Shown here: positions 4,041-26,169 of the stretch, piece after piece | Position numbering within the stretch: position 1 is the stretch's first letter | Layout: every line of letters begins with the position of its first letter | Assembly: GCA_965277105.1 (NCBI GenBank) | Contig: OZ255710.1 | Location: 792,730-856,729 of the forward strand | Direction: 5' to 3' | Length of the DNA: 64,000 bases | From: Spirochaetota bacterium | GTDB taxonomy: Bacteria > Spirochaetota > UBA12135 > COTS27 > CAXSBA01 | The notes under the pieces: model-generated | What the model was told of the DNA's origin: nothing | The model's input: only the letters and a program-made list of their open reading frames with translations | Databases searched by the model: none | Position numbers and translations under genes: made by a program

Positions 4041-5528
4041 ATGAAAAATAGCGTTTTTATCAATGATTTTATTACATTTAAAACTAAAATTCTCATTCAC
4101 ATCACTTCTTTTATTACTATATTTTTCTTGATTATTTATGGGAAATTAGTTTGCCCATTTTTACAAGGCTTAGCTTTTATTGATTTTTTTAAGTTATTGG
4201 CGGTTTTATATTTTATTCAAATCATTATCCGCAATCTCATTTTTAATCATTTATCGGTTATTAAAGAAAACCAAACTCCCACTAGGGTAGCCTACAAGCA
4301 TTCAGTACTTACTTGGCTTATTATGGGAGTTTTGGCCGCAACGCTCTTTAAAATTATTTATAACGTCCATATCCCCTGGCACAGTCAGCTCAAAGTATTA
4401 AGTGGGTACTGGTTTTTGGGAGCAGGGATTAATGGGCAAATTGAATACATTATTTTTGAAAAAAGTTTCAAGCAGCACAATAAAATAGATTACAAGTCTT
4501 TTCTTGATTCCATCGTAAGTAGAATTAGCGAAAGTATTTTCATCTTCACCTTAGTGCCTAGCGTAACCCTTTTAATCATGGTCATTCGCTACATTTTTCA
4601 AGATAAAATCATCCCACTACCAGTAGCTGGAGAAGTGATTTTTATTGGCCTTTTTTTGATAACTGTAGCGTTAATAACGAGTTACCTTTACAGTAGGCAA
4701 TTATCTAATGATTTAAAAAAAATCTTAGGGGCAGTTGATAACTTAGAGAAAGGAATTTTTGATACCATTGACAATAAAAGAACCGATGAAATAGGGAAAA
4801 TCTCTTCGGAGATCAATCAAATGATCATGGGGTTAAAAAGAAAAGAATTAATCCAAAAAGCATTCGGTCACTTTGTCTCTCCACAAATCGCCGAGAACTA
4901 CCTACAGTCTTTTGGGATAAACGAAAACGCTGACCTTAGGGGAAAAGGAGAGATAAAACAATTAACTATTTTAATGAGTGACTTAAGAGACTTTACCCGC
5001 TTTTCAGAGAAAAAAAGCCCAACCGAGGTTACGAGTATTTTAAACGATTACTTTAGTAAAATGGTAGAGGCCACCGAAAAGCATGGAGGGATAGTGAATA
5101 AATTTATTGGAGATGGACTAATGGCTATCTTTGGGCTAGTTTCTAAAGACAATGAAACTTCGGCTACTAGTGCCCTTAAAGCAGCTAACGAAATGGAAGG
5201 CATGTTAGCTAAAATTAATCAAGATCTAAACCTATCTTTAAAATTTGGGGTTGGGCTCCACTATGGAAAAGTTTTATCTGGTTACATTGGCAGTAAAAAC
5301 CGTTTAGAATTCACCGTCATTGGCTCAGTGGTTAATCAAGCTAGTAGGATAGAGCAAGAAACTAAAGACAAAAACGCCCCTAATATTTTGTATTCAGCAG
5401 AAGTCGCTAAAGAGCTGACTAAAGATAATATTGATTCAAAATCGATTAAAGAAGTGCAGCTAAAGGGCATAGAAAAAAAGGTGTCGCTTTATTCTTTATC
5501 ATCTGAAAAAGCCCTTGGTAAATCGTAG
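4041..5528 (+). CDS. Membrane-bound class III adenylate/guanylate cyclase with HAMP linker
   Basis: The N-terminal ~220 aa carry multiple TM helices, followed by a HAMP-like segment (LKKILGAVDNLEKGIFD...EIGKISSEINQMIMGL). The cyclase core shows LTILMSDLRDFTRFSE, KFIGDGLMAIFG and VVNQASRIEQ. Confidence 0.85.
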   Translation: MKNSVFINDFITFKTKILIHITSFITIFFLIIYGKLVCPFLQGLAFIDFFKLLAVLYFIQIIIRNLIFNHLSVIKENQTPTRVAYKHSVLTWLIMGVLAATLFKIIYNVHIPWHSQLKVLSGYWFLGAGINGQIEYIIFEKSFKQHNKIDYKSFLDSIVSRISESIFIFTLVPSVTLLIMVIRYIFQDKIIPLPVAGEVIFIGLFLITVALITSYLYSRQLSNDLKKILGAVDNLEKGIFDTIDNKRTDEIGKISSEINQMIMGLKRKELIQKAFGHFVSPQIAENYLQSFGINENADLRGKGEIKQLTILMSDLRDFTRFSEKKSPTEVTSILNDYFSKMVEATEKHGGIVNKFIGDGLMAIFGLVSKDNETSATSALKAANEMEGMLAKINQDLNLSLKFGVGLHYGKVLSGYIGSKNRLEFTVIGSVVNQASRIEQETKDKNAPNILYSAEVAKELTKDNIDSKSIKEVQLKGIEKKVSLYSLSSEKALGKS

Positions 5529-5630: not shown

Positions 5631-5703
5631 GCCCACATAGCTCAGTTGGTAGAGCACTTGCATGGTAAGCAAGAGGTCAGCAGTTCAATCCTGCTTGTGG
5701 GCT
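5631..5703 (+). tRNA. tRNA-Thr (anticodon GGT)
   Basis: Manual cloverleaf: acceptor gcccaca/tgtgggc, D arm gctc/gagc, anticodon stem cttgc/gcaag with loop atGGTaa, T arm agcag-ttcaatc-ctgct, discriminator t. Confidence 0.9.
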
Positions 5704-5885
5704 TATCGACCAAATCCAACCAACTTGAAATTACTAATAAAATTCCCATAAAAACTGATATAATTATAGCATGCTTATGATTAGTTGTCTAGATTAAAGC
5801 AACTGAAATGAAAATTAAAATTAATAAATTTATCGTATAGTATATTTATTATTTATTTAATATTTTATATTAAAGGAAAAAAATT

Positions 5886-7118
5886 ATGAAAAAAAAATTA
5901 TTAATGATTATAACGATTATAAAGGTCGCCTTGCTAGCCTCGGCGCTCTTTTTGGTCAGCTGTAATGAAAGAAGTGACACAGCAACACCTAGCGGAGATG
6001 ATACCCCTATCACTGACGCAAGTTGTACTTTTGTTTTTACTCCTGGAGAAGACCCAGAAGATGGTGAGGAAAATCCTTTTGATGAGAAAACAGGCGGGAT
6101 TTGTTCGGTCAAAGGCGATGTGGCTACTTTTACAACAACCTTAGCCTTTGAAGGGGAAAATGTCGAGTATACGATTTCTATTAACCAAGCTAATGGAACA
6201 TTTAAAGCTAGTATTGATGAAACTGATGAAATTACTGGTAAAGTTACAGTTAGTAATGATGGGAAAAAATGGGAGTGGGTGTTCCTTAATTCAATTGCTA
6301 CCTTGGAGATTACAGGTGATATTAGCGGAGGTGATACTAGCGGAGGTGATACTGCAACAGCTGAGGGCAAGGTTCTTTTTAAAGAAGGAAATAATGAATT
6401 TGGCGATATCTACGCTGGCGTTACTAATATGACGTGCACCCTTGAAGTGGAAGAAGCCGGTAAATCCCCGATAACCTATAACGGGATTTGCGGTAAAAAC
6501 AATGTGGAGGGATTTATTGCTTTTTACGATAAAGAAGATAACCCGAGCGTATCTGCTCGTTTGATTGTTCCCCATAACCAATACCCTGCCGAAGAAATCG
6601 AATATAGTGAGGCAGAAGCTATAAAAGAGAAAAACCCTACTGCTACTACTAAAGTTAGCCGAGAGAATAACGTCTGGGAAGGGAAAATAACTGATGGGGG
6701 AACTGATCTTTTGAAACTCACCATCACCACCGAAGACATAGTAGTGGCCGCTCCAGCAGATAGTAAGCCCTGTCAACTTGTAAATAAAATAATCGGTTAT
6801 GTTAAAATAAACAACTACACCTTAGACGGAAACTGCGTGCTGGCCCGTGATGCTAATGACGCCGTTACCAAACTAGACTTCACCAGCTCGCTAGCCAACC
6901 CTCCGGTCACCAGCTCTCTCCCAATCGGAGAAAAACAGATCCTTGTCTCCAGAGACAAGATCCCCCTAGTTAAGGATGTCTACCGTATTGGGGGTTATCT
7001 TTATAATGGTATTGGTAATACATTTGCAACTATTGATTTTAATAATGATAATGATAATACATTTACCACAAAAGCAAATTATACTACCATCTACGAATTT
7101 GATATTGTGCTCAAATAA
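5886..7118 (+). CDS. Paralogous surface lipoprotein, 3 Cys-pair modules (A-type 5' end)
   Basis: Signal peptide plus lipobox MKKKLLMIITIIKVALLASALFLVS|C. RBS aaagga lies upstream. Three modules each begin C-x-(F/L) with a second Cys ~17-24 aa later (SCTFVF...GICS; MTCTLEVEE...GICG; KPCQLV...GNCV). The core is shared with six neighbouring genes. Confidence 0.8.
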   Translation: MKKKLLMIITIIKVALLASALFLVSCNERSDTATPSGDDTPITDASCTFVFTPGEDPEDGEENPFDEKTGGICSVKGDVATFTTTLAFEGENVEYTISINQANGTFKASIDETDEITGKVTVSNDGKKWEWVFLNSIATLEITGDISGGDTSGGDTATAEGKVLFKEGNNEFGDIYAGVTNMTCTLEVEEAGKSPITYNGICGKNNVEGFIAFYDKEDNPSVSARLIVPHNQYPAEEIEYSEAEAIKEKNPTATTKVSRENNVWEGKITDGGTDLLKLTITTEDIVVAAPADSKPCQLVNKIIGYVKINNYTLDGNCVLARDANDAVTKLDFTSSLANPPVTSSLPIGEKQILVSRDKIPLVKDVYRIGGYLYNGIGNTFATIDFNNDNDNTFTTKANYTTIYEFDIVLK

Positions 7119-7356
7119 CTAGTTCCTTAAAAAGCGCCCCACGACTAAGCTAAGCTTCTAAACCATTCGTGGGGCGGGGACTTTTCTTCTCCGCCGGGGG
7201 TTGTTCTCCGCCGGGGGTTGCTAAACTTCTTCTATTTCTTCTATTTCCTCTAATAATTTTTTTAAAATTAAAACAACTGAAATGAAAATTAAAAAATTAG
7301 ATTGAATAAATTTATTGTATAATACATTATTATTTAATTTAATTCTAATTTAATTT
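7119..7356 (+). repeat. Conserved inter-paralog cassette (terminator hairpin, GC-rich 17-mer, phased TTCTAT repeats, promoter, RBS)
   Basis: The same ~240-bp block recurs at 8314..8589, 9517..9757, 10975..11160 and (broken) 11440..11677. It contains tctccgccgggggttgt twice in tandem (7188..7221), ttctat at 7230 and 7239, caactgaaatgaaaattaaaa, and TATAAT at 7318..7323. Confidence 0.8.
7135..7176 (+). terminator. Stem-loop after lipoprotein gene (10-bp GC-rich stem, 22-nt loop)
   Basis: cgccccacga (7135..7144) pairs with tcgtggggcg (7167..7176) and is followed by gggacttttcttct. The loop is large and the U-tract weak, so terminator function is inferred. Confidence 0.5.
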
Positions 7357-7371
7357 ATGAGGAGAAAAATT

Positions 7372-8313
7372 ATGACAAAAAAATTATTAATGATTATAAA
7401 AATCACCATGCTAATTTCGGTACTCTTTTTCGCCAGCTGTAACAGTAGCAGCAGTAGCAGCGATACAGCAACACCTAGTGGAGGTGATACTGCAGGTGAT
7501 ACTGCAATTGGAGAGGTCATCGGCACAACTGAGGGCAAGGTTCTTTTAATGAATAGTGGAAACTCTGAAATTGCCGGTGTCCACAATGGCGTTACTAATA
7601 TGACGTGCACCCTTGAAGTGGAAGAAGCCGGTAAATCCCCGATAACCTATAACGGGGCTTGCGATAAAGACACTTGGGAAGCAGTTATTTCTTTTCGCGA
7701 TAAAGAAGATGACCCGAGTATATCTGCTCGTTTGGTTGTTCCCCATACCTATTACTTTACCGAAGAAATCGAATATAGTAAGGCAGAAGATGTAGTCCGA
7801 GACAACCCTACTGCCACTACTAAAGTTAGCCGAGAGAATAACGTCTGGGAAGGGAAAATAACTGATGGGGGAACTGACCTTTTAAAACTCACCATCACCA
7901 CCAAAGACAAAGTAGTGCCCGCTCCAACAGGTAGCAAGCCCTGTCAACTTGTAAATAAAATGATCGTTTTTGAAAAAATAGACAACTACACCTTAGACGG
8001 ATACTGCGTGCTGACCTATGATACTGCTGGCACCACCGTTACCAAACTAGACTTCACCAGCTCACTAGCCAACCCTGCCGTCATCATCTCGCTCCCAATC
8101 GGAGAAACCGACCAGGTCAAAGCAGAAAGTGTACTAGACAATCGCTCCCTTTTTAAGGATGCCTATCTTATTGGGGGTTATCTTTATAATGGTATTACTC
8201 TTGAAACGACTATTGATTTTAATGATAATAAGAATAATACATTTACCGCAAAAATGAATTATGATAATGGTAATGGTGTGGCATCCGAATTTGATATTGT
8301 GCTCACCGAATAA
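7372..8313 (+). CDS. Paralogous surface lipoprotein, 2 Cys-pair modules (B-type 5' end)
   Basis: The ORF opens at 7357, but aggag at ~7362 followed by ATG 7372 gives MTKKLLMIIKITMLISVLFFAS|C. The Ser/Thr/Gly linker precedes the conserved core MTCTLEVEEAGKSPITYNG.C ... NNVWEGKITDGGTDLLKLTI ... KPCQLVNK...LDG.CVL...TKLDFTSSLANP. Confidence 0.8.
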   Translation: MTKKLLMIIKITMLISVLFFASCNSSSSSSDTATPSGGDTAGDTAIGEVIGTTEGKVLLMNSGNSEIAGVHNGVTNMTCTLEVEEAGKSPITYNGACDKDTWEAVISFRDKEDDPSISARLVVPHTYYFTEEIEYSKAEDVVRDNPTATTKVSRENNVWEGKITDGGTDLLKLTITTKDKVVPAPTGSKPCQLVNKMIVFEKIDNYTLDGYCVLTYDTAGTTVTKLDFTSSLANPAVIISLPIGETDQVKAESVLDNRSLFKDAYLIGGYLYNGITLETTIDFNDNKNNTFTAKMNYDNGNGVASEFDIVLTE

Positions 8314-8589
8314 CTAATAACTAGTTCCTTAAAAAGCGCCCCACGACTACTCTCAACTAAGCTGAACTTCTAGGCTTTCTTAGCTACTCGTAGGTGGCTT
8401 GTGGGGTGGTCGTGGGGCGGAGACTTTTTCTCTCCCCCTCCGCCGGGGGTTGTTAAACTTCTTCTATTTTTTCTATTTTTTCTATAAATTTTCTAGATTA
8501 AAGCAACTGAAATGAAAATTAAAATTAATAAATTTATCGTATAGTATATTTATTATTTATTTAATATTTTATATTAAAGGAAAAAAATT
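8314..8589 (+). repeat. Inter-paralog cassette copy (long-loop hairpin 8337..8419, TTCTAT x3 at 8462/8471/8480)
   Basis: cgccccacgac (8337..8347) pairs with gtcgtggggcg (8409..8419). Then come ccgccgggggttgtt, three ttctat hexamers 9 bp apart, and the A-type promoter/leader, which is identical to 5788..5885. Confidence 0.75.
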
Positions 8590-9516
8590 ATGAAAAAAAA
8601 ATTATTAATGATTATAACGATTATAAAGGTCGCCTTGCTAGCCTCGGCGCTCTTTTTGGTCAGCTGTAATGAAAGAAGTGACACAGCAACACCTAGCGGA
8701 GGTGATACTGCAATTGGAGAGGTCATCGGTACAGCTGAGGGCAAGATTTTTTTTAAAGGAAGTGGAAAACCTGAGATTGGCAATGTCTACGCTGGCGTTA
8801 GTAATATGACGTGCACCCTTGAAGTGGAAGAAGCCGGTAAATCCCCTACAACCTATAACGGGATTTGCGGTAAAAGCGACGTGGAAGTAGCTATTTCTTT
8901 TCGCGATAAAGAAGATGACCCGAGTATATCTGCTAGTTTGGTTGTTCCCAATATCTATTACCTTACCGAAGAAATCGAATATAGTAAGGAAGAAACTATA
9001 AAAGGGGAAAACCCTCATGCCACTACTACGGTTATCCGGAAGAATAACGTCTGGGAAGGAAAAATAACTGATGGGGGAACTGACCTTTTAAAACTCACCA
9101 TCAAAACCAAAGACAAAGTAGTGCCCGCTCCAACAGGCAGTAAGCCCTGTCAACTTGTAAAGAAACAAGTCTACTCCGATTATTTAAACGACTACACCTT
9201 AAACGGGAACTGCGTGCTGGCCTATGATACTGCTGGCACCACCGTTACCAATATAAACTTCACCAGCTCGCTAGCCAACCCTCCCGTCACCGCCTCGCTC
9301 CCAATCGAAGAAATCGAGATCACCGAAGACAATCTATCTATTCTGGATGATTATTTCTACCGTATTGGGGGTTATCTTCATGCTAATATTGATTATGTAG
9401 CTAGCCAATCAGGCTCTATTAATGTTTTTAAAAAACCTGCAAATGATAACGAATTTACCGCATTGTTTTATCTGCCAAACACGGTATTGGAATTTGATAT
9501 TGTGCTCACCGAATAA
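8590..9516 (+). CDS. Paralogous surface lipoprotein, 2 Cys-pair modules (A-type 5' end)
   Basis: The first ~37 codons are identical to gene 5886 (MKKKLLMIITIIKVALLASALFLVSCNERSDTATPSG). The core resembles 7372..8313, and the C-terminal third is shared with 13071..13976 (LPIEEIEITEDNLSILDDYFYRIGGYLHANIDY). Confidence 0.8.
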   Translation: MKKKLLMIITIIKVALLASALFLVSCNERSDTATPSGGDTAIGEVIGTAEGKIFFKGSGKPEIGNVYAGVSNMTCTLEVEEAGKSPTTYNGICGKSDVEVAISFRDKEDDPSISASLVVPNIYYLTEEIEYSKEETIKGENPHATTTVIRKNNVWEGKITDGGTDLLKLTIKTKDKVVPAPTGSKPCQLVKKQVYSDYLNDYTLNGNCVLAYDTAGTTVTNINFTSSLANPPVTASLPIEEIEITEDNLSILDDYFYRIGGYLHANIDYVASQSGSINVFKKPANDNEFTALFYLPNTVLEFDIVLTE

Positions 9517-9757
9517 CTAGTTCCTTAAAAAGCGCCCCACGACTAAGCTAAGCTTCTAAACCATTCGTGGGGCGGGGACTTTTCTTCTCCGCCGGGGGTT
9601 GTTCTCCGCCGGGGGTTGCTAAACTTCTTCTATTTCTTCTATTTTTCTAATAATTTTTTTCTTCTAAGTTAAAACAACTGAAATAAAAATTAAAAAATCA
9701 AATTGAATAAATTCATTGTATAATACATTATTATTTAATTTAATTCTAATTTAATTT
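9517..9757 (+). repeat. Inter-paralog cassette copy (hairpin 9533..9574, tandem GC-rich 17-mers)
   Basis: Near-identical to 7119..7356. cgccccacga (9533..9542) pairs with tcgtggggcg (9565..9574). Confidence 0.75.
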
Positions 9758-10974
9758 ATGAGGAGAAAAATTATGACAAAAAAATTATTAATGATTATAA
9801 AAATCACCATGCTAATTTCGGTACTCTTTTTCGCCAGCTGTAACAGTAGCAGCGACCCAGCAACGCCTAGCGGAAAAGAAAATACCGGAAATGATACCAC
9901 TATCACTGACGCAAGTTGTACTTTTGTTTTTACTCCTGGGGAAGACATAGGAAATCAAATACCTACTTTATGACAAAACCGACGGGACTTGTTCGGTCGA
10001 AGACGGTGTGGCTACTTGGAAACGAAGCGCTTTAGCGGGAAATAGCGATATATACGGTTTCTTTTAACCAAGCTAATGGAACATTTAAATATATATATGA
10101 TGCTGATGGAGTTAATCAATTAAATCTGGACTTTCCTGGTACAGTTACAGTTAGTGATGATGGGAAAAGATGGGAGTGGAAGTCGTCTGATTCAACTGGT
10201 ATCATTGAGATTACAGGTGATAGCGGAGGTGATATTAGCGGAGGTGATACTGCAATTGGAGAAGTCATCGGCACAGCTGAGGGCAAGGTTCTTTCTAAAG
10301 ATCTTGGATTTGGTAGAAATACCTACGATGGCGTTACTAGTATGACGTGCACCCTTGAAGTGGAAGAAGCCGGTAAATCCCCGATAACCTATAACGGGAT
10401 TTGCGATAAAAACAATGTGGAGGGATTTATTGCTTTTTACGATAAAGAAGATAACCCGAGCGTATCTGCTCGTTTGACTGTTCCCCATAACCAATACCCT
10501 GCCGAAGAAATCGAATATAGTGAGGCAGAAGCTATAAAAGAGAAAAACCCTACTGCTACTACTAAAGTTAGCCGAGAGAATAACGTCTGGGAAGGGAAAA
10601 TAACTGATGGGGGAACTGATCTTTTGAAACTCACCATCACCACCGAAGACATAGTAGTGGCCGCTCCAGCAGATAGTAAGCCCTGTCAATTTGTAAATAA
10701 AATAATCGGTTATGTTAAAATAAACAACTACACCTTAGACGGAAACTGCGTGCTGGCCCGTGATGCTAATGACGCCGTTACCAAACTAGACTTCACCAGC
10801 TCGCTGGCCAACCCTGCCGTCATCATCTCGCTCCCAATCGGAAAAAGCGACGAGATCAGCTCAGACAATCCAGACAATCGCTCCCAGTTTAAGGATACCT
10901 ATTGGGGATTATTGGGGATTATCTTTATGCTAATGGTGTGGCATCCGAATTTGATATTGTGCTCAAATAACTAG
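9758..10974 (+). pseudogene. Chimeric lipoprotein paralog with at least 3 frame disruptions
   Basis: The B-type signal peptide is followed by a gene-5886-like first module. The frame changes near 9950-9970 and again near 10055-10065, and the homologous protein is readable in three successive frames. A 10-bp tandem duplication attggggatt x2 (10901..10920) plus an internal deletion wrecks the C-terminus. Confidence 0.75.
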
Positions 10975-11160
10975 TTCCTTAAAAAGCGCCCCACGACTAC
11001 TCTCAACTAAGCTAAGCTTCTAAATCATTGGGGCGGGGACTTTTTCTCTCCGCCCTCCGCCGGGGGTTGTTAAACTTCTTCTATTTCTTCTATTTTTTCT
11101 ATAAATTTTCTAGATTAAAACAACTGAAATAAAAATTAAAAAATCAAATTGAATAAATTA
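10975..11160 (+). repeat. Inter-paralog cassette copy (truncated at its promoter end)
   Basis: Same hairpin, ccgccgggggttgtt, ttctat and caactgaaat elements. It breaks off after ttgaataaatta, where the fragment patch begins. Confidence 0.7.
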
Positions 11161-12092
11161 TTGATTTTAATGATAATAAGAATAATACATTTACCGCTGT
11201 AACAGTAGCAATACAGCAACACCTACCAATACTAACGGAACAGGAGATAACGGAGGTGTACTACTACCCCTAATGCAAATTGGTTCAAGATGAAAATAAG
11301 CATCTTAGAGAATAATGCGAATTTGATATTGTGCTCAGCGGCAAATGTCGAGTATAAGTTTAAATAACTAGTTCCTTAAAAAGCGCGTCCACGACTGCTA
11401 CCTTGGAGATTAAGCTAAGGCTTCAATTAAAGGGCAAGGTTCTTTCTAAAGATCTTGGATTTGGTTCGTGGGGCGGGGACTTTTTCTCTCCGAAGTGGAA
11501 GAAGCCGGTAAATCTCCGCCGGGGGTTGTTAAACTTCTTCTATTTCTTCTATTTTTTCTATAAATTTTCTAAGATTAAAGCAACTGAAATGAAAATTAAA
11601 AGAGAAAAATTAATAAATTTATCGTATAATATATTTGTTATTTGAAATTTAATATTTTATATTAAAGGAAAAAAATTATGAAAAAAAAATTATTAATGAT
11701 TATAACGATTATCACCAAAGGCCAACCCTGCCGCCTTGCTAGTTTAAGGATACCTCGGCGCTAACGACTATTTTTGATAATAAGAATAATACATTTACCG
11801 CAAAAATAGTAGCTAAACAGTATTGTGCTCAACAACAGGGCCTAGCGAAGAAGCTAAGCTTCTATGGGGCGGGGACTTTTTCAAGGCGTGTTAAATTTCT
11901 TTTTTCTATAAAGCAAAATGAAAATTAAAATGAACATAATATATTGATACTAAAGTCTACAAGGAAAAAAATTATGAAAAAAAAATTAGTAGTATGACGT
12001 GCACTGCTAGCCGAGGTGGTTGCAAGAAAACGGTATGGACAAGGCGTGATTTCTTTTGAAGACTAATGACATTGATACTAAATATGTAGTTA
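11161..12092 (+). other. Patchwork of 10-40-bp fragments of the lipoprotein genes and cassettes (non-coding)
   Basis: Recognisable pieces include ttgattttaatgataataagaataatacatttaccgc (=8213..), aaatgtcgagtata (=6160..), gctaccttggagatta (=6297..), agggcaaggttctttctaaagatcttggatttggt (=10283..), gaagtggaagaagccggtaaatc, two A-type ATG starts (11678, 11974), and terminator/promoter pieces. No long ORF is present. Confidence 0.7.
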
Positions 12093-12826
12093 GTAGTATG
12101 ACGTGCACTCTCGAATGTGGAAAACGGTAAAGATTACTAATTTGTAGTAAAAACAAGATGGAAACAAAGATTACTTTTGAAGATAAACCAGTTGACCCGA
12201 ACGTGTCTGCTGATTTGATTATTGTCAGTTCTAAAGGCATCGAAAAATATAGTAAGGCAGAAGATGTAGTCCGAGACAACCCTACTGCCACTACTAAAGT
12301 TAGCCGAGAGAATAACGTCTGGGAAGGGAAAATAACTGATGGGGGAACTGATCTTTTAAAACTCATCATCAAAACCCAAGACAAAGAAGTGACCGCTCCA
12401 GCAGGTAGTAAGCCGTGTAAATTTCTAAAAAAAGAAATCAATAATTATAGTTTTGACAACTACACCGCAGAGGGAAACTGCGTGCTAACCTATGATACTG
12501 ATGGCACCACCGTTACCGACATAGACTTCACCAGCTCGCTAGCCAACCCTCCCGTCACCGCTTCTTTCCCAGTAGGAAGTGGAGATACTCCCATCACCGA
12601 AGACAATCAATCCCTTTTTAAGGATGTCTACCGTATTGGGAGTTATCTTTATGAAACTATTGATTTTATAATTGGAACAGCAGATCCAATTATTAGTATT
12701 GTTAAAAATCCTAATAATAATATATTTAATTTAGAATTTAAATACGCTGGCGGTGAAGTATTTCACTTTGATATTGAACTCACCGACGACGGAACTGGAG
12801 ATAGCGAAACTAGAAGTGACGGATAA
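12093..12826 (+). pseudogene. 5'-degraded lipoprotein paralog (no signal peptide; intact 3' two-thirds)
   Basis: agtagtatgacgtgcactctcgaatgtgg is a decayed MTCTLEVEE motif that runs into stops. ORF 12158..12826 then encodes the conserved NNVWEGKITDGGTDLLKL, KPCKF...EGNCVL and FTSSLANPPVTAS core, with a unique C-terminus. Confidence 0.65.
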
Positions 12827-12906
12827 CTAGCACAGTTGTCGCTGAATTCGCTTTAGCCGGCTCCAACTAGTTTTTTGAATGATTTTCAACTAACTAGTAA
12901 ACTCTG

Positions 12907-12950
12907 ACCCTCAAAGGATTTTCTTTCCTGTCTACTCCTTTGAGGGTTTT
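12907..12950 (+). terminator. Rho-independent terminator
   Basis: accctcaaagga (12907..12918) pairs perfectly with tcctttgagggt (12936..12947) and is followed by ttt. Confidence 0.7.
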
Positions 12951-13070
12951 CTAAATTTCTTCTATAAATTTTCTAGATTAATAAAACACTCTGAAATGAA
13001 AATTAAAAATTAAATTGAATAAATTCATTGTATAGTTATTATTTAATTTTAATTTATGAGGAAAAAAGCT

Positions 13071-13976
13071 ATGATAAAAAAATTATTAATGATTATAAAA
13101 ATCACCATGCTAATTTCGGCACTCTTTTTCTCCAGTTGCAGAAGCAGCGACACAGCAACGCCTAGCGGAGGTGATACTGCAACAGCTGAGGGCAAAGTTT
13201 TTTTTAAAGAAAGTGAAAAATCTGAACTTGGCAATGTCTACACTGGCGTTAGTAATATGACGTGCACCCTTGAAGTCGAAGAAGCCGGGGAATCCCCGTT
13301 AACCTATAGCGGGATTTGCGGTAAAAACGATCTGGATACAACTATTTCTTTTCACGATAAAGCAGTTGACCCGAGCATATCTGCTCGTTTGGTTACTATC
13401 AGGAACGCTTTCACTACCACATTCATCGAATACAGTAAGGTAGAAGCTATAAAAGCGGAAAACCCTGGTGCCATTACTAAGCTTAGCCGGAGTAATAACG
13501 TCTGGGAAGGGAAAATAACCACAGCTGATGGGAAAATTGATCTTTTAAAACTCACCATCAAAACCCAAGACAAAGTAGTGCCCGCTCCAGCAGGTAGTAA
13601 GCCCTGTCAACTTGTAGGGAGAAAATCCTTCAACGGTTCCTTAGTCAACTACACCTTAGACGGAAACTGCGTGCTGGTCCGTGATGCTAATGACGCCGTT
13701 ACCAATATAAGATTCAACAGCTCGCTAGCCAACCCTCCCGTCACCGCCTCGCTCCCAATCGAAGAAATCGAGATCACCGAAGACAATCTATCTATTCTGG
13801 ATGATTATTTCTACCGTATTGGGGGTTATCTTCATGCTAATATTGATTATATAGCTATCCAATCAGGCTCTATTAATGTTTTTCAAAAAGCTGCAAATGA
13901 TAACGAATTTACCGCATTGTTTTATCTGTTGTCAAGCACGATATTCGAATTTGATATTGTAATCAACGATAACTGA
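13071..13976 (+). CDS. Paralogous surface lipoprotein, 2 Cys-pair modules (B-type variant 5' end)
   Basis: The ORF opens at 13056. aggaaaaaagct followed by ATG 13071 gives MIKKLLMIIKITMLISALFFSS|C. The core is conserved and the C-terminal third is near-identical to 8590..9516. Confidence 0.8.
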   Translation: MIKKLLMIIKITMLISALFFSSCRSSDTATPSGGDTATAEGKVFFKESEKSELGNVYTGVSNMTCTLEVEEAGESPLTYSGICGKNDLDTTISFHDKAVDPSISARLVTIRNAFTTTFIEYSKVEAIKAENPGAITKLSRSNNVWEGKITTADGKIDLLKLTIKTQDKVVPAPAGSKPCQLVGRKSFNGSLVNYTLDGNCVLVRDANDAVTNIRFNSSLANPPVTASLPIEEIEITEDNLSILDDYFYRIGGYLHANIDYIAIQSGSINVFQKAANDNEFTALFYLLSSTIFEFDIVINDN

Positions 13977-14203
13977 AAGCACCCAATAAATATTGTCCTT
14001 AGTCAACTTCTGCATAAAAAATGCTGAATGAGCACTAATCATTCAGCATTAATTACCCGGCTTTCAACTAGTCACATTACTTCGAGGAAGCTTGCTCTCG
14101 GGAAAATTGAAAAATCTTAGCTAAATTTATAATTATTTCACTAAACTAAAAAATCCCAATCGCATTACGTGGTGTAATTTTATCACCCAAAAAAATACAA
14201 TCT

Positions 14204-15880
14204 ATGACAAAAAAATTATTAATTATCCTAAAAATCACCATGCTAATTTCTCTGCTCTTTTTCGCCAGCTGTAATGAAAGTAGCACTAGCAGCGAAAGCA
14301 TAAAAAAAGAAACTCATTACCCTTGTCAGCTAAAAGAACGCCCCAACAACATAACCTATGACGGAACGTGCACGAAAAACTCTGATGAGATGGAAATTAC
14401 TTTTATTAAACAAGCCGACGAAAACTCCCCAAAAGTAGAAGCTTCGATTAATCTTTATGGAGACTCCGCGTTTCAAGTTGGTGCTACTGACAAAAAAGCA
14501 GCAATTAAAAACGCCGAGCCTTCAATCAGTATGGAGCAAAACTCTCGAGAGCAGACTACTGGAACTGCTAGTCTATGGGTTGTGAAGTTTTTTAAATCAG
14601 ATAACACATGGTCCGATTACTCTTTCGAAATCACTGACTCATCAGAAGCTCAGGACTCCAGCAAATTATCAGGAGCGCCCTGTGCTGTTGATGTTACGCT
14701 GCAGGAATCTTTTAATAGTATTTCATTAAAAGGAAAATGCGTAGCAACCTATGACGACAGTGCTGACAGTGCTATTACCCAACTGCTTTTCACTAGTCTT
14801 CAAACTAATCCCGTTATCGAGGCCTCCATTGCAAAAACTGGATTTTTTTCTGGGAACGCCACCTACAAAGTTGCTGGAGTCCCTCAAATAGACTACAGCA
14901 GTAGCTCTTCTTTTAGCAGAGTTGATACAAATCCTAGTGTAATACAATTTAGTTTAAGTAACGCTGATTTTATCATTACAATTAAAACCAGTGAAACTCC
15001 CCCCGCAATTAATGATGATGAACATTCCCATGATGATGAACATTCCCATGATGATGAACATTCCCATGATGATGAACATTCCCATGATGATGAACATTCC
15101 GCCGAAGAGCTTCCAGTCACTAAGTTTAGCGGTATCGCTTGCGAGCTACTGGATAATTTAGAAGAAAATTCCAGCCAAACCTACAAAGGGACTTGCTCGA
15201 AAAACGCCACCGATACGGCAATTGTTTTTACTACTGACGCCGGGATTAGTCCGGTTAGAACCGCTTCGATTAGCATAGTTGATCCGAATAATCGACTTAA
15301 CCGGGGAGCCTTTACCTACACCGTTGATGGGGTTACTCAAAAAAAACAAGAGGAACACACCGATCACTCTCATGACGAAGATGGGCATTACCACCCTCCT
15401 CCTTTTGAGTTTAGCAAACGGAAAAATAACCTATGGGAAGCGGGAATAACCACCGAAAGAAACCCGGACCCGGTTACTTCACTTCAAATCACCACCACAG
15501 ATAGTCCAGCGAATAGCACCCCACCAGCTAATGAGCCTTGTCGATTTGAGTTGTCAAAAATAAATCGTATTTTTATCCAATTAAACTATGAATTAGATGG
15601 AAGCTGCTTCCCAACCTACGCTGCTGATGGCAGCACCATTACCAAGCTAGACTTCACCAGTTCGCAGAAGAACCCCACCGTCAAGGTCTCGGCCAATACG
15701 CTCGATGATACTTTTAATTATGAAGTTGGAGGGGAAGATGTAGCAGGCATTAACGACAATACTTCAATCACTACTAAGTTTAATGGCAACCAAAAAGAAA
15801 TTGCAGTAAGCCTTCGAGATAGCGCAGTTGAATATAGCACAGGAATAATATTATCATTTAGTCTCCAACTCACCGACTAA
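14204..15880 (+). CDS. Large paralogous lipoprotein, 4 Cys-pair modules, with His/Asp/Glu-rich repeat
   Basis: Signal peptide MTKKLLIILKITMLISLLFFAS|C. Four modules are visible (YPCQL...GTC; APCAV...GKC; IACEL...GTC; EPCRF...GSC). The family motifs NLWEAGITTE and TKLDFTSSQKNP are present. It carries (DDEHSH)x5 and a second HTDHSHDEDGHYH patch. Confidence 0.8.
   Translation: MTKKLLIILKITMLISLLFFASCNESSTSSESIKKETHYPCQLKERPNNITYDGTCTKNSDEMEITFIKQADENSPKVEASINLYGDSAFQVGATDKKAAIKNAEPSISMEQNSREQTTGTASLWVVKFFKSDNTWSDYSFEITDSSEAQDSSKLSGAPCAVDVTLQESFNSISLKGKCVATYDDSADSAITQLLFTSLQTNPVIEASIAKTGFFSGNATYKVAGVPQIDYSSSSSFSRVDTNPSVIQFSLSNADFIITIKTSETPPAINDDEHSHDDEHSHDDEHSHDDEHSHDDEHSAEELPVTKFSGIACELLDNLEENSSQTYKGTCSKNATDTAIVFTTDAGISPVRTASISIVDPNNRLNRGAFTYTVDGVTQKKQEEHTDHSHDEDGHYHPPPFEFSKRKNNLWEAGITTERNPDPVTSLQITTTDSPANSTPPANEPCRFELSKINRIFIQLNYELDGSCFPTYAADGSTITKLDFTSSQKNPTVKVSANTLDDTFNYEVGGEDVAGINDNTSITTKFNGNQKEIAVSLRDSAVEYSTGIILSFSLQLTD
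15014..15103 (+). repeat. Perfect 18-bp in-frame tandem repeat (gatgatgaacattcccat, ~4.8 copies) encoding DDEHSH
   Basis: Read directly: units start at 15014, 15032, 15050 and 15068, with a partial fifth at 15086. Confidence 0.95.
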
Positions 15881-17273: not shown

Positions 17274-17671
17274 CCCCCACTCCCCAACCTCACCCCTAAA
17301 TAAATCCCCCCAGCCAACGCCGCCACTCCCACCACTGGTATCCCAATCACCGCCACGTAATACCAAAATTCCCCCCGGTTTTTAAGGTAATTATTTTCCG
17401 CCTCGAAGTCGTCGATTAAAAGATTTTTCTCATTTACGGACAAGGCGATAATCTCCTGTTTTTCCGCCTCCAACTCATCCACCCGGCGAATTAAAAGCGG
17501 ATATAACTCTATTATCCGAATCATCCGCAAAACTTCGCTAGGCGAATTTAAATCAATCTTTTTATGATAAAACGGCTCGGGGTATTTTTGTAAGTCGTTA
17601 CCAAGTAATAACGTTGTTGCTAATAGTGACAATGTAATTACTCTCACTAATAATGATAGCTTCATTTTCAA
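17270..17671 (-). CDS. Bitopic membrane protein (N-terminal signal/anchor, coiled coil, C-terminal TM), last gene of the lysis block
   Basis: MKMKLSLLVRVITLSLLATTLLLG at the N-terminus and FWYYVAVIGIPVVGVAALAGGIYLGV at the C-terminus. No Cys is present. It overlaps the upstream gene by 74 nt in another frame. Confidence 0.4.
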   Translation of the reverse strand: MKMKLSLLVRVITLSLLATTLLLGNDLQKYPEPFYHKKIDLNSPSEVLRMIRIIELYPLLIRRVDELEAEKQEIIALSVNEKNLLIDDFEAENNYLKNRGEFWYYVAVIGIPVVGVAALAGGIYLGVRLGSGG

Positions 17672-17846
17672 ATTCTTTTTTAGTTTCTAATTGCTTATTT
17701 ATAATGATTTTTTCTTGCTCGAATATTTCTTTTTTCCGTTCGGCCAATTCGCTCGTTTTATCTCGACTAAAAAAAAGGTAGGTGCCACTTATCCCCAAAA
17801 TAGCACCCACCAAAAAGGCTATAATGATAATCTTATAGCCCCGCAC
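17598..17846 (-). CDS. N-terminally anchored coiled-coil protein (i-spanin-like architecture)
   Basis: 82 aa. TM helix IIIIAFLVGAILGISGTYLFF is followed by a charged helical segment. Its position is distal in the lysis cassette. Confidence 0.35.
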   Translation of the reverse strand: MRGYKIIIIAFLVGAILGISGTYLFFSRDKTSELAERKKEIFEQEKIIINKQLETKKEFENEAIIISESNYIVTISNNVITW

Positions 17847-18168
17847 GTTTTTCTCTCCTTAGAAAAAAATCATCGAGGGTTTTTAAAAAACTACCGTCGG
17901 CGACTGTCCTCGTCGTTACTCTTAAAAGCCAAATCCCACTCAAAGCAATTAAATTATATTTCTCTATATCTTTAATAAATCCAGTTACTCGATTATGCCG
18001 CCCCCCAGTCCAAACCCCGCCTTCGAACTCAATCGCTAACTTGTATTTTTCGACATAATAATCTATTCTAAATTTTCTATTATCTAAGAATTTATACTCT
18101 TTCGTGTAATCAATTTTTTTTTGTTTAAAATAGTTTTCTATAAGTAGTTTTGCTAAATCGGAGTTCAT
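17833..18168 (-). CDS. Small Vsr/DUF559-like PD-(D/E)xK-fold endonuclease-like protein
   Basis: FRIDYYVEKYKLAIEFEGGVWTGGRHNRVTGFIKDIEKYNLIALSGIWLLRV follows the D...(I/V)E.(D/E)G...H...D.(R/K)...L...G..(L)R pattern of DUF559/Vsr-type nucleases. Confidence 0.45.
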   Translation of the reverse strand: MNSDLAKLLIENYFKQKKIDYTKEYKFLDNRKFRIDYYVEKYKLAIEFEGGVWTGGRHNRVTGFIKDIEKYNLIALSGIWLLRVTTRTVADGSFLKTLDDFFLRREKRAGL

Positions 18169-18181
18169 TTTTTTACCGTTA

Positions 18182-18532
18182 TCAATTAATGTCTTTCGCT
18201 TCTAATTTTTTCACTCGCACTCCCTTTTTCTTAAAAAAAGAACTAAGGACTTTAATTAAATCGTCATCACTAATATTAAGGCTTATTCTTAAAACCGTTA
18301 TCCCTTCTTCAGCAAAAAGATTATCTTTTCTATAATTGCTTTTTTTATTTACCTCAATTTTCCCATTGATATTTTTCCCTATCATAATCTCAATAGCCGT
18401 TTTGTATTGATGAAGGTAAAAATCAGTTTTATACTTTACGCTACTAGTAAACAAATAATCAAAAACATAAGGTATGCTATTTTTGCTGAAATACTTTCTT
18501 ATTTTATTTTTTAATTTTCTAACTTTTATCAT
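18182..18532 (-). CDS. Second small DUF559-like protein (possibly degenerate active site)
   Basis: KTDFYLHQYKTAIEIMIG...YRKDNLFAEEGITVLRI has the same spacing as the neighbour. It lacks the (D/E)G after the IE, and its tail is basic. Confidence 0.35.
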   Translation of the reverse strand: MIKVRKLKNKIRKYFSKNSIPYVFDYLFTSSVKYKTDFYLHQYKTAIEIMIGKNINGKIEVNKKSNYRKDNLFAEEGITVLRISLNISDDDLIKVLSSFFKKKGVRVKKLEAKDIN

Positions 18533-18771
18533 TTTTTTTTATTTATAATGTTTTTTAAAAATCCCGTCTTCTCCACCGTGTCGGCTCCGATCCACGCCCC
18601 AATTAAAAGGCACAACGGGCTAATGATTATCTCATAAAACTCATTTAACGCCTTTGACTTATCGAACAAATCCAGCCCCACTAAAACAAAGTTATAAACC
18701 ATCCCGCCGACTAAAATACTCGTAACCATCAAAGCAACGCTAAACCTTTTCCAGCTTTTTTTATTTTCCAT
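18529..18771 (-). CDS. Holin-like two-TM protein
   Basis: 80 aa with two hydrophobic helices (FSVALMVTSILVGGMVYNFVLVGL; IIISPLCLLIGAWIG) and a basic C-terminus. It lies immediately downstream of the endolysin and its stop overlaps the next gene. Confidence 0.45.
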   Translation of the reverse strand: MENKKSWKRFSVALMVTSILVGGMVYNFVLVGLDLFDKSKALNEFYEIIISPLCLLIGAWIGADTVEKTGFLKNIINKKK

Positions 18772-18789
18772 TTTTTAAACTCCTTATTT

Positions 18790-19269
18790 TTAGACGTTCC
18801 AATTTTTGTATTTTGTCATTCCGTTTTCTCGATACGCCCTTAAAATCTCTTTTCGATTATTTCCCGAAGTAAAACTTACATGAACCCAGGCAGGATTTTT
18901 ATCATTTCCAAATTCCCAGATTAGTTGGTCGAAATCCAGCTCGTCTTTTATCGTGTTGAAAATATCCGCGTTGGTTAAAACCGATTTTTTATTATCCATA
19001 TCAATGTCGATAGCTTCGCCTTTACAGTGCTGACTTTTAGTGCTCCCGCCAATGGCCGCGTTAAGGACCGGACTACGATACCCGCTGCTAATGAAAATCG
19101 GCACTTCGCACAGTTTTCGTAACGGCTGAAAAAGATATTTTGCTAAATATGATAAATTAGCCAGTGCTTCCTTTGTAGGATAATTATCAATCCCTAATCG
19201 TAAGGCAGTAGTTGATTTTATAGCTTCCCCCAGGCTTAAATTTTCCGAGAGTTTCATCGCTTTCATCAT
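18790..19269 (-). CDS. Peptidase M15A-type cell-wall hydrolase (endolysin)
   Basis: SGYRSPVLNAAIGGSTKSQHCKGEAIDI ... NPAWVHVSF matches the H-x6-D...H zinc triad and surrounding motif of M15 (VanY / L-Ala-D-Glu peptidase-like) phage lysins. Confidence 0.8.
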   Translation of the reverse strand: MMKAMKLSENLSLGEAIKSTTALRLGIDNYPTKEALANLSYLAKYLFQPLRKLCEVPIFISSGYRSPVLNAAIGGSTKSQHCKGEAIDIDMDNKKSVLTNADIFNTIKDELDFDQLIWEFGNDKNPAWVHVSFTSGNNRKEILRAYRENGMTKYKNWNV

Positions 19270-19442
19270 CTAAACCACGCTCCTAAAAACTGAAGCACGC
19301 TCCCTTTTGCTATTAACTTTTCTCCTAAGGCCAAAAGCAAAATAGCAATTAAAATATTTATCTTGTGATTAATCTTTCTATTCAGCCTATGGTATTTTTT
19401 CATGGCGCTCATTTCACGGTTGGTTTTCAGATGAAAATTCAT
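19266..19442 (-). CDS. Small single-TM protein, paralog of 19482..19733 (not in supplied ORF track, 58 aa)
   Basis: Hand translation: MNFHLKTNREMSAMKKYHRLNRKINHKINILIAILLLALGEKLIAKGSVLQFLGAWFR. Its TGA overlaps the endolysin ATG (ATGA). The C-terminal 45 aa align with MVNKYDRLNNKLNILIVVLVLSLGENLGVLKFLGALFKL. Confidence 0.5.
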   Translation of the reverse strand: MNFHLKTNREMSAMKKYHRLNRKINHKINILIAILLLALGEKLIAKGSVLQFLGAWFR

Positions 19443-19481
19443 AGTAGATTTTTTTTTTCAACTTTAAAGGCCTGGTTATTT

Positions 19482-19733
19482 TCATAATTTAAACAACGCC
19501 CCTAAAAACTTCAACACCCCCAAGTTTTCCCCTAAAGACAAAACTAAAACCACGATTAAAATGTTGAGCTTGTTGTTGAGCCTATCGTACTTGTTAACCA
19601 TGGCTAATATCTTTCGCTCGTTTTCTTTTATCCTATCCATCGCCCCAGTGGAGCCGTTGCCGTAAAGGTCGTGCTTGATTGTCTGCACGTCTTCTTTGAT
19701 TTTGGCATTGGTTCGTTTGGTTGGATTAGTCAT
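19482..19733 (-). CDS. Small single-TM protein (holin/antiholin-like candidate)
   Basis: 83 aa. A hydrophilic N-terminal half is followed by the TM helix LNILIVVLVLSL. It lies between the tail fibre and the endolysin, and its paralog is immediately downstream. Confidence 0.45.
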   Translation of the reverse strand: MTNPTKRTNAKIKEDVQTIKHDLYGNGSTGAMDRIKENERKILAMVNKYDRLNNKLNILIVVLVLSLGENLGVLKFLGALFKL

Positions 19734-19736
19734 TTT

Positions 19737-20934
19737 TTAGCGGTATTTTATGAAAGCGCAGAGCTGGACGCTTTTCGGGCGGGTTTCGCTGGAGCCTTCG
19801 CTACTAGTATTTCTTGTTTCACCACTATTAAAATCAGTGTCGTCAAAATTCACAAAAAGTTGTTGTGCATATGGCCCTCTATTTTGTCTAAAAACTTTAA
19901 CTTCATGATTATGCTCTTCAAACGTATCTTTCTGATAATAAAGAATATTGAAATAACCCCTATTCGGATCCACTCCTTGCCCTTCGTCTAAGGCCCTAAA
20001 AAAAAGCCCTTGAAAGTTCGGCAGGCGGAATTTCTTTTGTCCGTTTACGGATTGAATTCTAAAATATCTATTATAGATGTAACCTGAATTATAACTACCA
20101 TTAAAAATACTATCTGTAATATCTTGACTGTGTCTATAAATCGCAGTACTGATAGCACCTCCCCCTGTCCCTAGCCCTGTTTCTACTATAATTTTATTAT
20201 CCGCATTATGTTGCGACAATATCCAATCATACAAATCTAAATAAGCAGAATTATCAACAGCGTCATAAACAGTTCGTCCGTCTAGTTTTAAATAATTAGG
20301 TGGTCGTAAAGTAGTTGGGAAATAGGCTATTTGCCCGATGTCCTCCTTGTTCCTCGTTTCTAAATCATTTATCCTTTGCTCTAAACGATTAATCAATTCG
20401 CTATTGTTGTCATCGACTACTTTTATCTGCTCTTCAACTCCCTGTATCGTGGTGTCGTTGATAGTTTTTATATTATTTTTAATGCTCTCTACTTGGTTAT
20501 TTATTCCTGGGATTTTCGTGGTGTTGATGGTGCTTATCTGGCTATTTATCCAATGGATTTTATTTTCATTAATGTCTTTTATGGCATCTTGGTTGCTGGT
20601 TATTTTTTGGTTAATTCCCGGGATTTTATTGTCAACTACTTTTATTTTATTTTCAATCTCCGGCACCTTGGTGTCGTTGAGATTTTTTAGGTTGTTTTTA
20701 ATCTCCGGGATTTTTTCATCAAAAATTTCATCCCTTTCGCTCTTAAAGTATTTGCTCCACTTTTGGACTTTCTCCATCATCCCGTTAAACTCCTTGGCGC
20801 TTAAGGCCTGCCCTTCTCTAAAGCCTTCTTTGCGGATAGCTTCACTGAGGTCGGTTTTTTTGTCGTCGGGGAGGTTGTCCGCCGAAAATGTCGACGGTGT
20901 CGCTCGGGGGTTTAATTTCGTTGTCGTTGGTCAT
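19737..20934 (-). pseudogene. Tail fibre paralog 2 (collar-domain C-terminus) with N-terminal frameshift
   Basis: The ORF-track product starts at internal MMEKVQKW (20780). Upstream, ATG 20934 encodes MTNDNEIKPPSDTVDIFG, then one extra C (cc at 20879..20880, against gttgtcgccgaaaat in fibre 1) shifts the frame. The shifted frame reads DNLPDDKKTDLSEAIRKEGFREGQALSAKEFNG, homologous to fibre 1. The C-terminus is GQIAYFPT...SSETRPKSVQLCAFIKYR. Confidence 0.65.
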
Positions 20935-21014
20935 TCATTATCTCCTTTTTTTTTACAATATTTTTCTTAATTTTTTTCCTTAATTTTTTTTTTATTTTTA
21001 TAATTCATCTCATT

Positions 21015-21971
21015 TTAGCGGTATCTGATGAAAGCACAAAGCTGGATGTTTTTCGGGCGGGTTTCGCTGGAGCCGTTATATTGGGAATAATGTCTATCGT
21101 TACTATCAGTAGGAAATCCTTGCTTTAAATTTGTCGCGATTAATGACTGATAATGAGTATCAGAAGCTATTGAATCTCCATCTATAGGCAACTCATGCCT
21201 ATGACTTTTAAACGTATCGCCTCGATACCATAAAATCTTTTCATTAGCTCCATCTGGGTTTACTCCTTGCCCTTCTTCGAGAACCCTAAGAAAAACTCCT
21301 TGAAAATTAGGCACCTTGAACTTTTTTTCACCATTTGCTATTTGAACTCTAAAATGTTTATTGTCTGTTGAGTTAGATGAAAAAGTGGAATGAGTAATAT
21401 CTGTCGCAAAATGTTTAAGAGCATTTGAAATACTTTGTCTGCCTGTCGATATTAATATCTTATTATTCGCGCTATGCTCGCTCATTATCCAGTTGAATAA
21501 ATCCAAATACTCGGGGTTAGCCACCGCATCATACACCGTCTGCCCGTCGAGTTTGAGATAATTAGCCGGCGTTTTAACTGTCGGGAAATAAGCAATCTGG
21601 CCGATGTCGCGTTTAATCTTTTGCTCTAAATCACGCATTCGCTCTTCTAAACTATTTTTGTTTTCATCGATTATTTCCTTGTAATCGTCGATGAGCGTCC
21701 TATTTTCATTGATTAACCTTTTGTTCTCATCGGTTACATTTTTGTGGTTGTCGATAAGTGCTTTATTGCTTTTTGCTGTATTTTCTATTCGCTGCTTTTC
21801 ACTTTCTAGCCACTTAACCCACTTTTGGGTTTTCTCCATCAGCCCGTTAAAGTCTTTGGCGGTTAAGGCCTGCCCTTCTCTAAAGCCTTCTTTGCGGATA
21901 GCTTCACTGAGGTCGGTTTTTTTGTCGCTAGGGAGGTTGTCGCCGAAAATGTCGTCGGGGGTTTTTGTCAT
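21015..21971 (-). CDS. Tail fibre protein with phage tail-collar-type C-terminal domain
   Basis: N-terminal attachment region, coiled coil, then IGQIAYFPTVKTPANYLKLDGQTVYDAVANPEYLDLFNWI and the terminal SSETRPKNIQLCAFIRYR, typical of collar-domain fibres. Confidence 0.7.
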   Translation of the reverse strand: MTKTPDDIFGDNLPSDKKTDLSEAIRKEGFREGQALTAKDFNGLMEKTQKWVKWLESEKQRIENTAKSNKALIDNHKNVTDENKRLINENRTLIDDYKEIIDENKNSLEERMRDLEQKIKRDIGQIAYFPTVKTPANYLKLDGQTVYDAVANPEYLDLFNWIMSEHSANNKILISTGRQSISNALKHFATDITHSTFSSNSTDNKHFRVQIANGEKKFKVPNFQGVFLRVLEEGQGVNPDGANEKILWYRGDTFKSHRHELPIDGDSIASDTHYQSLIATNLKQGFPTDSNDRHYSQYNGSSETRPKNIQLCAFIRYR

Positions 21972-21986
21972 TAGTTTATCCTTTGA

Positions 21987-22682
21987 TTAAAAATCTTTTT
22001 CATGCAGAGTGAAGCCTAGTTTTAAACCAAAACCAGGATTTCGACCAAATAAAAAAGTTTTTTCTAAACCATAGTCGATCCTCATCTTGTTTTTCCCTAA
22101 ATTAAAACTATAAAGTAACTCGTAATGTTCTTGTAAATAACTTATCTCATTTCTAGTTGCGGGTTCTCCATTTTTTTCAATCTCTGCTGTAGTTTCTAAA
22201 TCAAAAAAAACAAATAGCACCATATCGGAAAAAATAAAAAAATTAAACTTTTCGTTTAACTCAAGCACTTTACTAAGTTCAACAAAAGCATTATAGGTGA
22301 AGTCGTCATAAATTGATGAGATCTTGGCTAATAAAATTAACCGGTAAGAATTATCCTTACTTCGCTTTTTTTCGTCACTGTCGCTTGCTAGTAACATATG
22401 CGACGATATGCGAGGTATTTCTAAAAGCTCCCCAAAATAATCCAACCACTTCCCCTTAGCGGTGGTGATGTTATTGTAAAACTGTAAATTTTCAACTTCC
22501 CCGTTTGACTCGTTAGAGAAACTATCCAGTTGATTATGCGCATCCCTTCTTCCTTCACGAAGCTCATCTTTTATTACCTCACTCGACAAGTGCCGGGCTA
22601 TTTTCTCAAATACAGAAAGCCATATTTTCCCTTGGCCTTCTAGACCAACCAACTGATTAATATTCGTTAATTTTTTACTCAT
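21987..22682 (-). CDS. Baseplate/tail protein (P2 gpI / Mu gp48-like position)
   Basis: 231 aa, directly after and overlapping the baseplate J-like gene. The call rests on position and size only. Confidence 0.4.
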   Translation of the reverse strand: MSKKLTNINQLVGLEGQGKIWLSVFEKIARHLSSEVIKDELREGRRDAHNQLDSFSNESNGEVENLQFYNNITTAKGKWLDYFGELLEIPRISSHMLLASDSDEKKRSKDNSYRLILLAKISSIYDDFTYNAFVELSKVLELNEKFNFFIFSDMVLFVFFDLETTAEIEKNGEPATRNEISYLQEHYELLYSFNLGKNKMRIDYGLEKTFLFGRNPGFGLKLGFTLHEKDF

Positions 22683-24289: not shown

Positions 24290-24355
24290 TTTTTTTTGCT
24301 ACTTTTTTTTTATTGTTCGATTTTTTATTGTTCGATTATTAATCATTTGATTTTT

Positions 24356-24661: not shown

Positions 24662-24684
24662 AATTTTTTTCTCCTTTATTATTT

Positions 24685-26142: not shown

Positions 26143-26169
26143 GCCTGATGTTTTCCTTAGTTCAATAAT

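Follow-up and report, generated by a model that had tools for sequence, protein, structure and literature searches.

How does about 1 kb of a bacterial contig come to consist of two gene series woven into one another? Our window is a 64,000-nucleotide stretch of a Spirochaetota bacterium (assembly GCA_965277105.1, contig OZ255710.1, positions 792,730 to 856,729 of the forward strand), and it carries an array of paralogous lipoprotein genes. Between two members of that array lies a patchwork of short fragments of the same family, which an earlier note on this DNA had ascribed either to repeated template switching between misaligned paralogs or to a consensus artefact from collapsed repeats. We asked what the pieces are, in what order they stand, and which origin fits them best. 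All coordinates are those of the window unless another contig is named.

The array occupies 5886-15880. Its genes lie head to tail, each encoding a signal peptide with a lipobox (...LFFASC or ...LFLVSC), and 3' of each gene is a cassette of ~240 bp that includes a G+C-rich terminator hairpin and an A+T-rich promoter region. Gene and cassette together form tandem units of 1.2-1.5 kb that are 76-98% identical to one another in pairwise DNA comparisons, and the patchwork sits within these units, in a setting where reads can be misplaced. None of the families in Pfam, NCBIfam or PHROGs could be assigned to the lipoproteins. The 5' cassettes (5790-5920, 7270-7400, 8495-8625, 9669-9800, 11572-11712 and 12990-13100) are of two kinds with matching signal peptides: the A type, ...aaggaaaaaaattATG, goes with MKKKLLMIITII, and the B type, ...tttatgaggagaaaaattATG, goes with M(R/T)KKLLMIIKITML. 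The two types alternate across the paralogs regardless of gene-body type, which suggests modular exchange between units. The last gene of the array (14204-15880, 558 aa) looks like a fusion in which the C-terminal module of the family occurs twice, with five copies of a His-rich DDEHSH repeat in between; this repeat gave the only NCBIfam match, a weak one to a nickel/cobalt efflux protein.

We found the lipoprotein family on only 2 contigs among 5.8 billion clustered proteins: the source contig (1,685,129 bp, in both NCBI and ENA) and L001, a metagenome contig of 11,612 bp (ENA ERZ26859052 ctg276848). Scans of genome_contigs and of JGI metagenome contigs gave no relative of the family, and an exact search for the terminator motif found nothing. 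Exact-protein look-ups of the window genes, covering independent assemblies and read-derived contigs, had none on record and retrieved only L001. Both ends of L001 lie inside array genes, and its content is restricted to 9 array genes, of which 7 are complete and all 7 of these intact. Seven L001 units have no counterpart in the window above about 92% identity.

Over window positions 8410-11163, L001 is 98.3% identical to the source contig, and the match stops at 11159-11163, that is, where the patchwork starts; an alternative assembly of the locus thus diverges at the anomaly. The shared stretch includes gene A (9773-10974, plus strand), a broken lipoprotein paralog whose ortholog on L001, P0011 (L001 9757-11025), is an intact gene of 422 aa. 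Gene A is followed by a terminator hairpin and the first part of a B-type intergenic cassette (10975-11158, plus strand), the last stretch that is co-linear with L001. Past the breakpoint, L001 goes on with the remainder of the promoter and then with an intact next gene (from L001 11277), cut at 335 nt by the end of the contig. L001 is nevertheless a distinct allele or strain and not the correct or 'true' version of the locus, because ~12 substitution events separate the two sequences in 2.75 kb (window 8400-11163, 0.44%).

Indels between the window and L001 cluster from 9642 on, next to the patchwork. The reading frame of gene A is split into ORFs of 71, 63 and 210 aa by two 1-nt insertions. 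Relative to L001, the window has an additional T at 9967, an additional A at 10050 and 3 nt fewer at 10221, followed by a 5-nt duplication at 10903, the loss of 75 nt at 10928 and the loss of 3 nt at 11029. The gene A indels may be further consensus errors rather than real pseudogenisation.

We parsed the first part of the patchwork, 11159-11760 (plus strand), by jumping alignment against the rest of the array and L001, and assigned each piece to columns in an alignment of 12 complete gene-plus-cassette units. The parse matched 583 of the 602 bases in 24 pieces, leaving 3 mismatches and 16 unmatched bases. It scored 354.6, whereas dinucleotide shuffles scored -54.7 ± 6.5 and unrelated regions of the window about -50. 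Differences from the sources are dominated by indels, with 3 mismatches in 586 aligned bases against 24 pieces. Every piece fell on one of two co-linear ascending tracks, X and Y. The fragments singled out in the earlier note all lie where it had put them, each an exact match to a window paralog or an L001 unit.

Track X is made up of pieces at 11159-11197, 11318-11336, 11362-11396, 11411-11424, 11465-11491, 11514-11601, 11606-11712, 11732-11742 and 11751-11760 (plus strand). It starts at column 1316 (position 11159), ~120 nt ahead of the stop codon, rises to column 1748 and ends at 11760 in column 65 of the next unit. Along this path it contains a gene 3' end, the stop, the terminator, an A-type promoter cassette, an ATG at 11678 and the start of an A-type signal peptide. 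Compared with its source of 394 bases, track X retains 350 and has 3 mismatches. It has five deletions, of 30, 9, 7, 3 and 6 nt, and each coincides exactly with the site of a Y piece. The Y pieces therefore replace a few X bases and are not clean insertions.

The pieces of track Y stand at 11198-11317, 11337-11361, 11397-11410, 11425-11464, 11492-11513, 11602-11605, 11713-11731 and 11743-11750 (plus strand). Counting its continuation beyond 11760, track Y ascends from column 74 (at 11196, just past the lipobox) through 1748 and then reaches column 15 of the next unit. Within the weave, track Y is the body of a single gene, which we call gene B, from just past the lipobox to near the 3' end. 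The gene-body pieces at 11196-11361 are not arbitrary fragments of the family: they are specifically the gene that follows gene A in L001. Across 11100-11362, comprising the cassette, the start of the next gene and the X pieces termed X0 and X1, comparison with L001 gave 254 matched positions and 4 mismatches. It follows that gene A and its cassette lead on naturally into track Y, a gene B that is intact in L001. In the parse, the Y pieces of 11196-11361 are exact, and only deletions separate them from L001: 123 nt of promoter and signal peptide are missing, and there are also small deletions (roughly 1-8 nt) and a larger one (about 63-86 nt). The small deletions include homopolymer contractions (gg to g, aaa to a).

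The weave does not end the anomaly: two further stretches also derive from the family and are more degraded. From 11761 to 11988 (plus strand), track Y continues on an X-type source, with unit columns ascending from 1290 to 1748 and then to column 15, through a gene 3' end, a terminator and an A-type cassette to an ATG at 11974. Aligned to this source, 11761-12000 had 224 matches, 11 mismatches, 31 deletions (139 nt in total) and 4 insertions, and islands of 1-5 nt were retained between deletions. Next come two partial, deleted copies of a gene-body region (columns about 641-770) at 11989-12243 (plus strand), which form the damaged 5' part of gene D; a 20-nt direct repeat accompanying this duplicated part lies at 11986-12005 and 12090-12109. 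For 11989-12243, the parse comprised 15 pieces with 16 mismatches and scored 46.8; shuffles scored -30 ± 3.8. Normal sequence resumes at 12244-12246, where units W2 and Le are matched exactly over 94-106 nt, and the clean 3' half of gene D follows (12244-12826, plus strand; ORF 12158-12826, 222 aa).

The anomaly accordingly extends from 11159 to about 12243, beyond the 11161-12092 first proposed. That proposal also divided it into two interleavings and a separate collapsed mini-unit. All of the pieces lie on two ascending tracks, and both interleavings and the 'mini-unit' are therefore one continuous structure. The mini-unit is indeed riddled with deletions, as had been noticed, but it does not stand by itself, 11761-11988 being the onward course of track Y.

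The order of the pieces is far from arbitrary. When the 14 runs were placed in random order, 65 of 2,000,000 orders could be split into two ascending chains, in agreement with Catalan(14)/14! = 3.1e-5. In the formal alignment, the two series are co-linear in native order, as the earlier note had proposed; all pieces are in direct orientation and strictly ordered on both sources, through ~16 alternations within 600 nt.

Such order bears on whether the stretch might be real sequence of great age, a pseudogene remnant in which a longer array was whittled down by many independent deletions and each piece derives from a different unit. Deletions alone can in principle give any order of pieces in a tandem array, and this array does hold broken genes. 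At least 8 ancestral units would be needed, however, whose remnants ascend by chance in both series, with a probability of about 4e-8 to 3e-5. Decay should also have added substitutions, at odds with the few mismatches of the weave and with Y pieces that differ from L001 by deletions only, and the 1-5 nt islands between deletions are unlike what natural deletions leave behind. We rejected an origin by deletion only, requiring as it does at least 8 units with ascending remnants and no substitutions, and regard an old remnant as very improbable.

The joins between the tracks are equally regular. Microhomology of 1-2 nt, never more, was present at 11 of 12 clean X-Y junctions (binomial p about 0.001-0.008). 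A chimera formed in a de Bruijn graph was rejected because the junction overlaps are only 1-2 nt. For the course of the patchwork (P) relative to its sources, we calculated a path excess, d(P,X)+d(P,Y)-d(X,Y), using an X source of 397 nt and, for Y, a proxy of 1241 nt consisting of L001 gene B and unit La. The edit distances were 859 for d(X,Y), 216 for d(P,X) and 679 for d(P,Y), giving an excess of 36. Random co-linear merges with the same piece lengths had an excess of 70 ± 17 (lower tail 0.7%). Redrawing only the Y pieces lowered this to 61 ± 15 (tail 1%), and requiring at least 1 nt of microhomology as well gave 57 ± 11 (tail 0.25%). Since a proxy stands in for most of Y and can only inflate the observed value, the test errs on the conservative side. 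It favours a co-linear merge near the X-Y alignment path and is supportive rather than decisive. As for resemblance between X pieces and the Y segments that they replaced, X0 matched the signal-peptide region at 18 of 21 positions (7% tail), and the resemblance of X1 to its replaced Y segment was not significant; we give this comparison no weight as evidence.

Junctions of this kind would also be left by a real rearrangement. A single catastrophic repair or replication event of the MMBIR/FoSTeS kind could have made the stretch if a nascent strand switched ~16-25 times between two nearby templates, advancing on both, with the same error-prone tract leaving frameshifts and deletions in genes A and D. 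All pieces are exact and templated from the local array, several segments are joined by 1-2 nt of microhomology, the absence of substitutions fits a single recent event, and indels cluster beside the patchwork. BIR-type synthesis is prone to frameshifts. In these respects the weave is like MMBIR/FoSTeS and chromoanasynthesis, with many short, nearby-templated segments and apparently one event without point mutations. We know of no comparable multi-switch event in a bacterium; in humans, Pol theta and Pol delta are required for the pathway.

In human cells, ultra-complex single-molecule MM-BIR events contain up to 109 templated insertions of 21-245 bp (PMC13065848). Known eukaryotic events of the MMBIR/FoSTeS type, however, draw on scattered loci, and the most complex of those considered here has at least one insertion pair in opposite orientations (PMC13065848; PMC2621351). 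The weave uses only two templates, always in direct orientation, and ascends strictly on both of them while staying near the alignment path, rather than choosing its templates freely. Template switching also leaves unexplained the second, deletion-riddled copy of the X-type source, the duplicated fragment of gene D and the existence of an orphan contig from the same locus. We consider such an event unlikely. Were the sequence real, a bacterial polymerase would have alternated about 16-25 times between two misaligned co-linear templates in a single event, which we doubt; an equivalent route would be a heteroduplex of misaligned units whose loops were resolved one after another.

From sequence comparison, we favour the view that 11159-12243 probably arose as an artefact of alignment or consensus building where a repeat is collapsed or varies between strains, and is not the real sequence of the organism, with a probability of roughly two in three. 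Of the two origins put forward at the outset, with no choice made between them, this is the one that the evidence gathered here favours; template switching fits the 1-2 nt microhomology and is less favoured. The artefact would arise if two read populations, or reads and a wrong backbone, disagreed within the array and an alignment-based consensus or polishing step was applied there. One sequence, Y, would read in from the left, from gene A through the rest of the B-type cassette into a full gene B, as in L001. The other, X, would come from the right or be present in the backbone, and would hold a gene 3' end, the terminator, an A-type cassette and the beginning of the gene after it. If these non-homologous but co-linear sequences were made to share a single alignment window, they would produce a series of bubbles, at each of which the consensus would take one branch. 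The output would be pieces of both in native order, joined at shared bases. Where a gap won, material would be dropped, and where reads were placed at different offsets, material would be duplicated. The consensus was presumably built by partial-order alignment or from a pile-up, and we infer that gene B is intact, or arranged in another way, at the true locus.

Because a consensus of this kind takes one branch per bubble, it explains why the pieces stand in this order, why X bases are replaced at every Y site and why the junctions fall on shared bases. It also covers the excess of deletions, the repeated copies at shrinking offsets and the scarcity of substitutions, as well as the break in synteny with L001 and the confinement of the damage to the array. 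A two-track pattern arises automatically in the consensus of two aligned sequences, and both the two ascending chains and the low path excess are what a co-linear merge gives. Damage is limited to this locality. Elsewhere the window is densely filled with intact ORFs and shows no evident general assembly errors; the overlapping ORFs at 24685-25912 gave no Pfam match. Against an artefact, a heaviest-path consensus of two read populations would not obviously yield all of X plus some of Y, and exact pieces with 1-2 nt of microhomology would also be expected from a real microhomology-mediated event.

Errors of long-read polishing at repeats, whether from windowed consensus (racon/SPOA) or pile-up polishers, share much with this anomaly. 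Both are confined to a near-identical tandem family, merge co-linear sequences at shared bases, and are deletion-dominated with few substitutions, local duplications and clean surroundings; the anomaly, moreover, starts where the alternative contig diverges. In the published descriptions that we drew on, polishing errors in repeats are mostly small (for example, PMC8812927), whereas the weave here spans 1 kb.

L001 itself is informative about how the locus was assembled. Among ~15 billion proteins, SdhA, GlpK, the upstream adenylate cyclase and the downstream 284-aa gene (at 16419) each formed a single-sequence cluster at 90% identity; in the same set, array gene W3 has a near-identical partner, present on L001. 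These four proteins have no partner at 90% identity or above while array genes have one, and L001 therefore has no genome of its own on record. Cluster membership and the naming of the contigs suggest, as the simplest interpretation, that L001 belongs to the same population and is either unplaced or a strain variant. The names ctg276848_18.89x_l and ctg4609_3x_l resemble what we take to be the output of a long-read metagenome assembler. One such assembler polishes by partial-order alignment in 500-nt windows and trims those parts of short contigs that are >99% identical to contigs of 1 Mb or more (PMC11392814). Trimming of parts >99% identical would leave an orphan array contig like L001.

The patchwork is surrounded by tandem paralogs that probably encode surface lipoproteins and contain both variable and conserved blocks. 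This setting raises one further possibility, a silent store of partial cassettes for segmental gene conversion, as in antigenic variation of the vls/pilS kind. The donor sites of Borrelia vls, Neisseria pilS and Treponema tprK likewise consist of partial gene fragments beside a surface lipoprotein gene family. The fragments here, in contrast, carry terminators, promoters and start codons, are out of frame and are identical to the paralogs instead of being variants of them. About half of the patchwork material is terminator, promoter and signal-peptide sequence, not variable coding segments, and there is only one such stretch. It has no open frame through the pieces, the only ORF of at least 40 aa starting in 11159-12157 being an 80-aa TTG ORF that runs through cassette sequence. 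Promoterless variant segments kept in frame were not what we found, and a silent-cassette store was rejected as scarcely credible.

If 11159-12243 is an artefact, the source contig (1.69 Mb) misrepresents the locus, at least one lipoprotein gene is missing or falsely a pseudogene, and the frameshifts in gene A may be false too; studies of copy number, decay or variation in this lipoprotein family would then be misled. The combination of two ascending tracks, replacement at each insertion, a lack of substitutions and a merge near the alignment path would offer a flag for such errors that needs no reads. If the stretch is instead real, it would preserve the traces of serial template switching in a bacterium with unusual clarity. 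Chromoanasynthesis would then have a bacterial counterpart, marked by an ordered two-template signature new to description, an outcome we think improbable.

The array differs from its surroundings in composition (G+C 0.38-0.41, against 0.31-0.33 in the flanks), and a tRNA-Thr(GGT) gene at 5631-5703 directly precedes it. Upstream lies an adenylate/guanylate cyclase gene (4041-5528) with MASE10 and HAMP domains. In the relative L082 (5348-9500), whose cyclase is 61% identical, the genes upstream of the cyclase match those of the window in size and order, and downstream of the cyclase there is neither the tRNA-Thr nor a lipoprotein array. The tRNA may have been the insertion point of an island made up of the array and perhaps also the phage-like block described below. 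Outside the lineage, the cyclase has nearest relatives that include proteins annotated as from Spirochaetia MAGs, at about 40% identity, and the closest match of SdhA, at most 74% identical, is from a Cytophagales MAG. Within the species set searched, the organism has no close relative.

Not far downstream of the array, a block of phage-like genes occupies 17300-31300 on the minus strand. It encodes a Peptidase_M15 protein (18790-19269), tail collar and tail fibre proteins (19737-20780 and 21015-21971), a baseplate wedge protein (22675-23997), a tail sheath protein (28651-29658) and a portal protein (30425-31273), all on the minus strand, and is a myovirus-type prophage or a contractile tail-like element.
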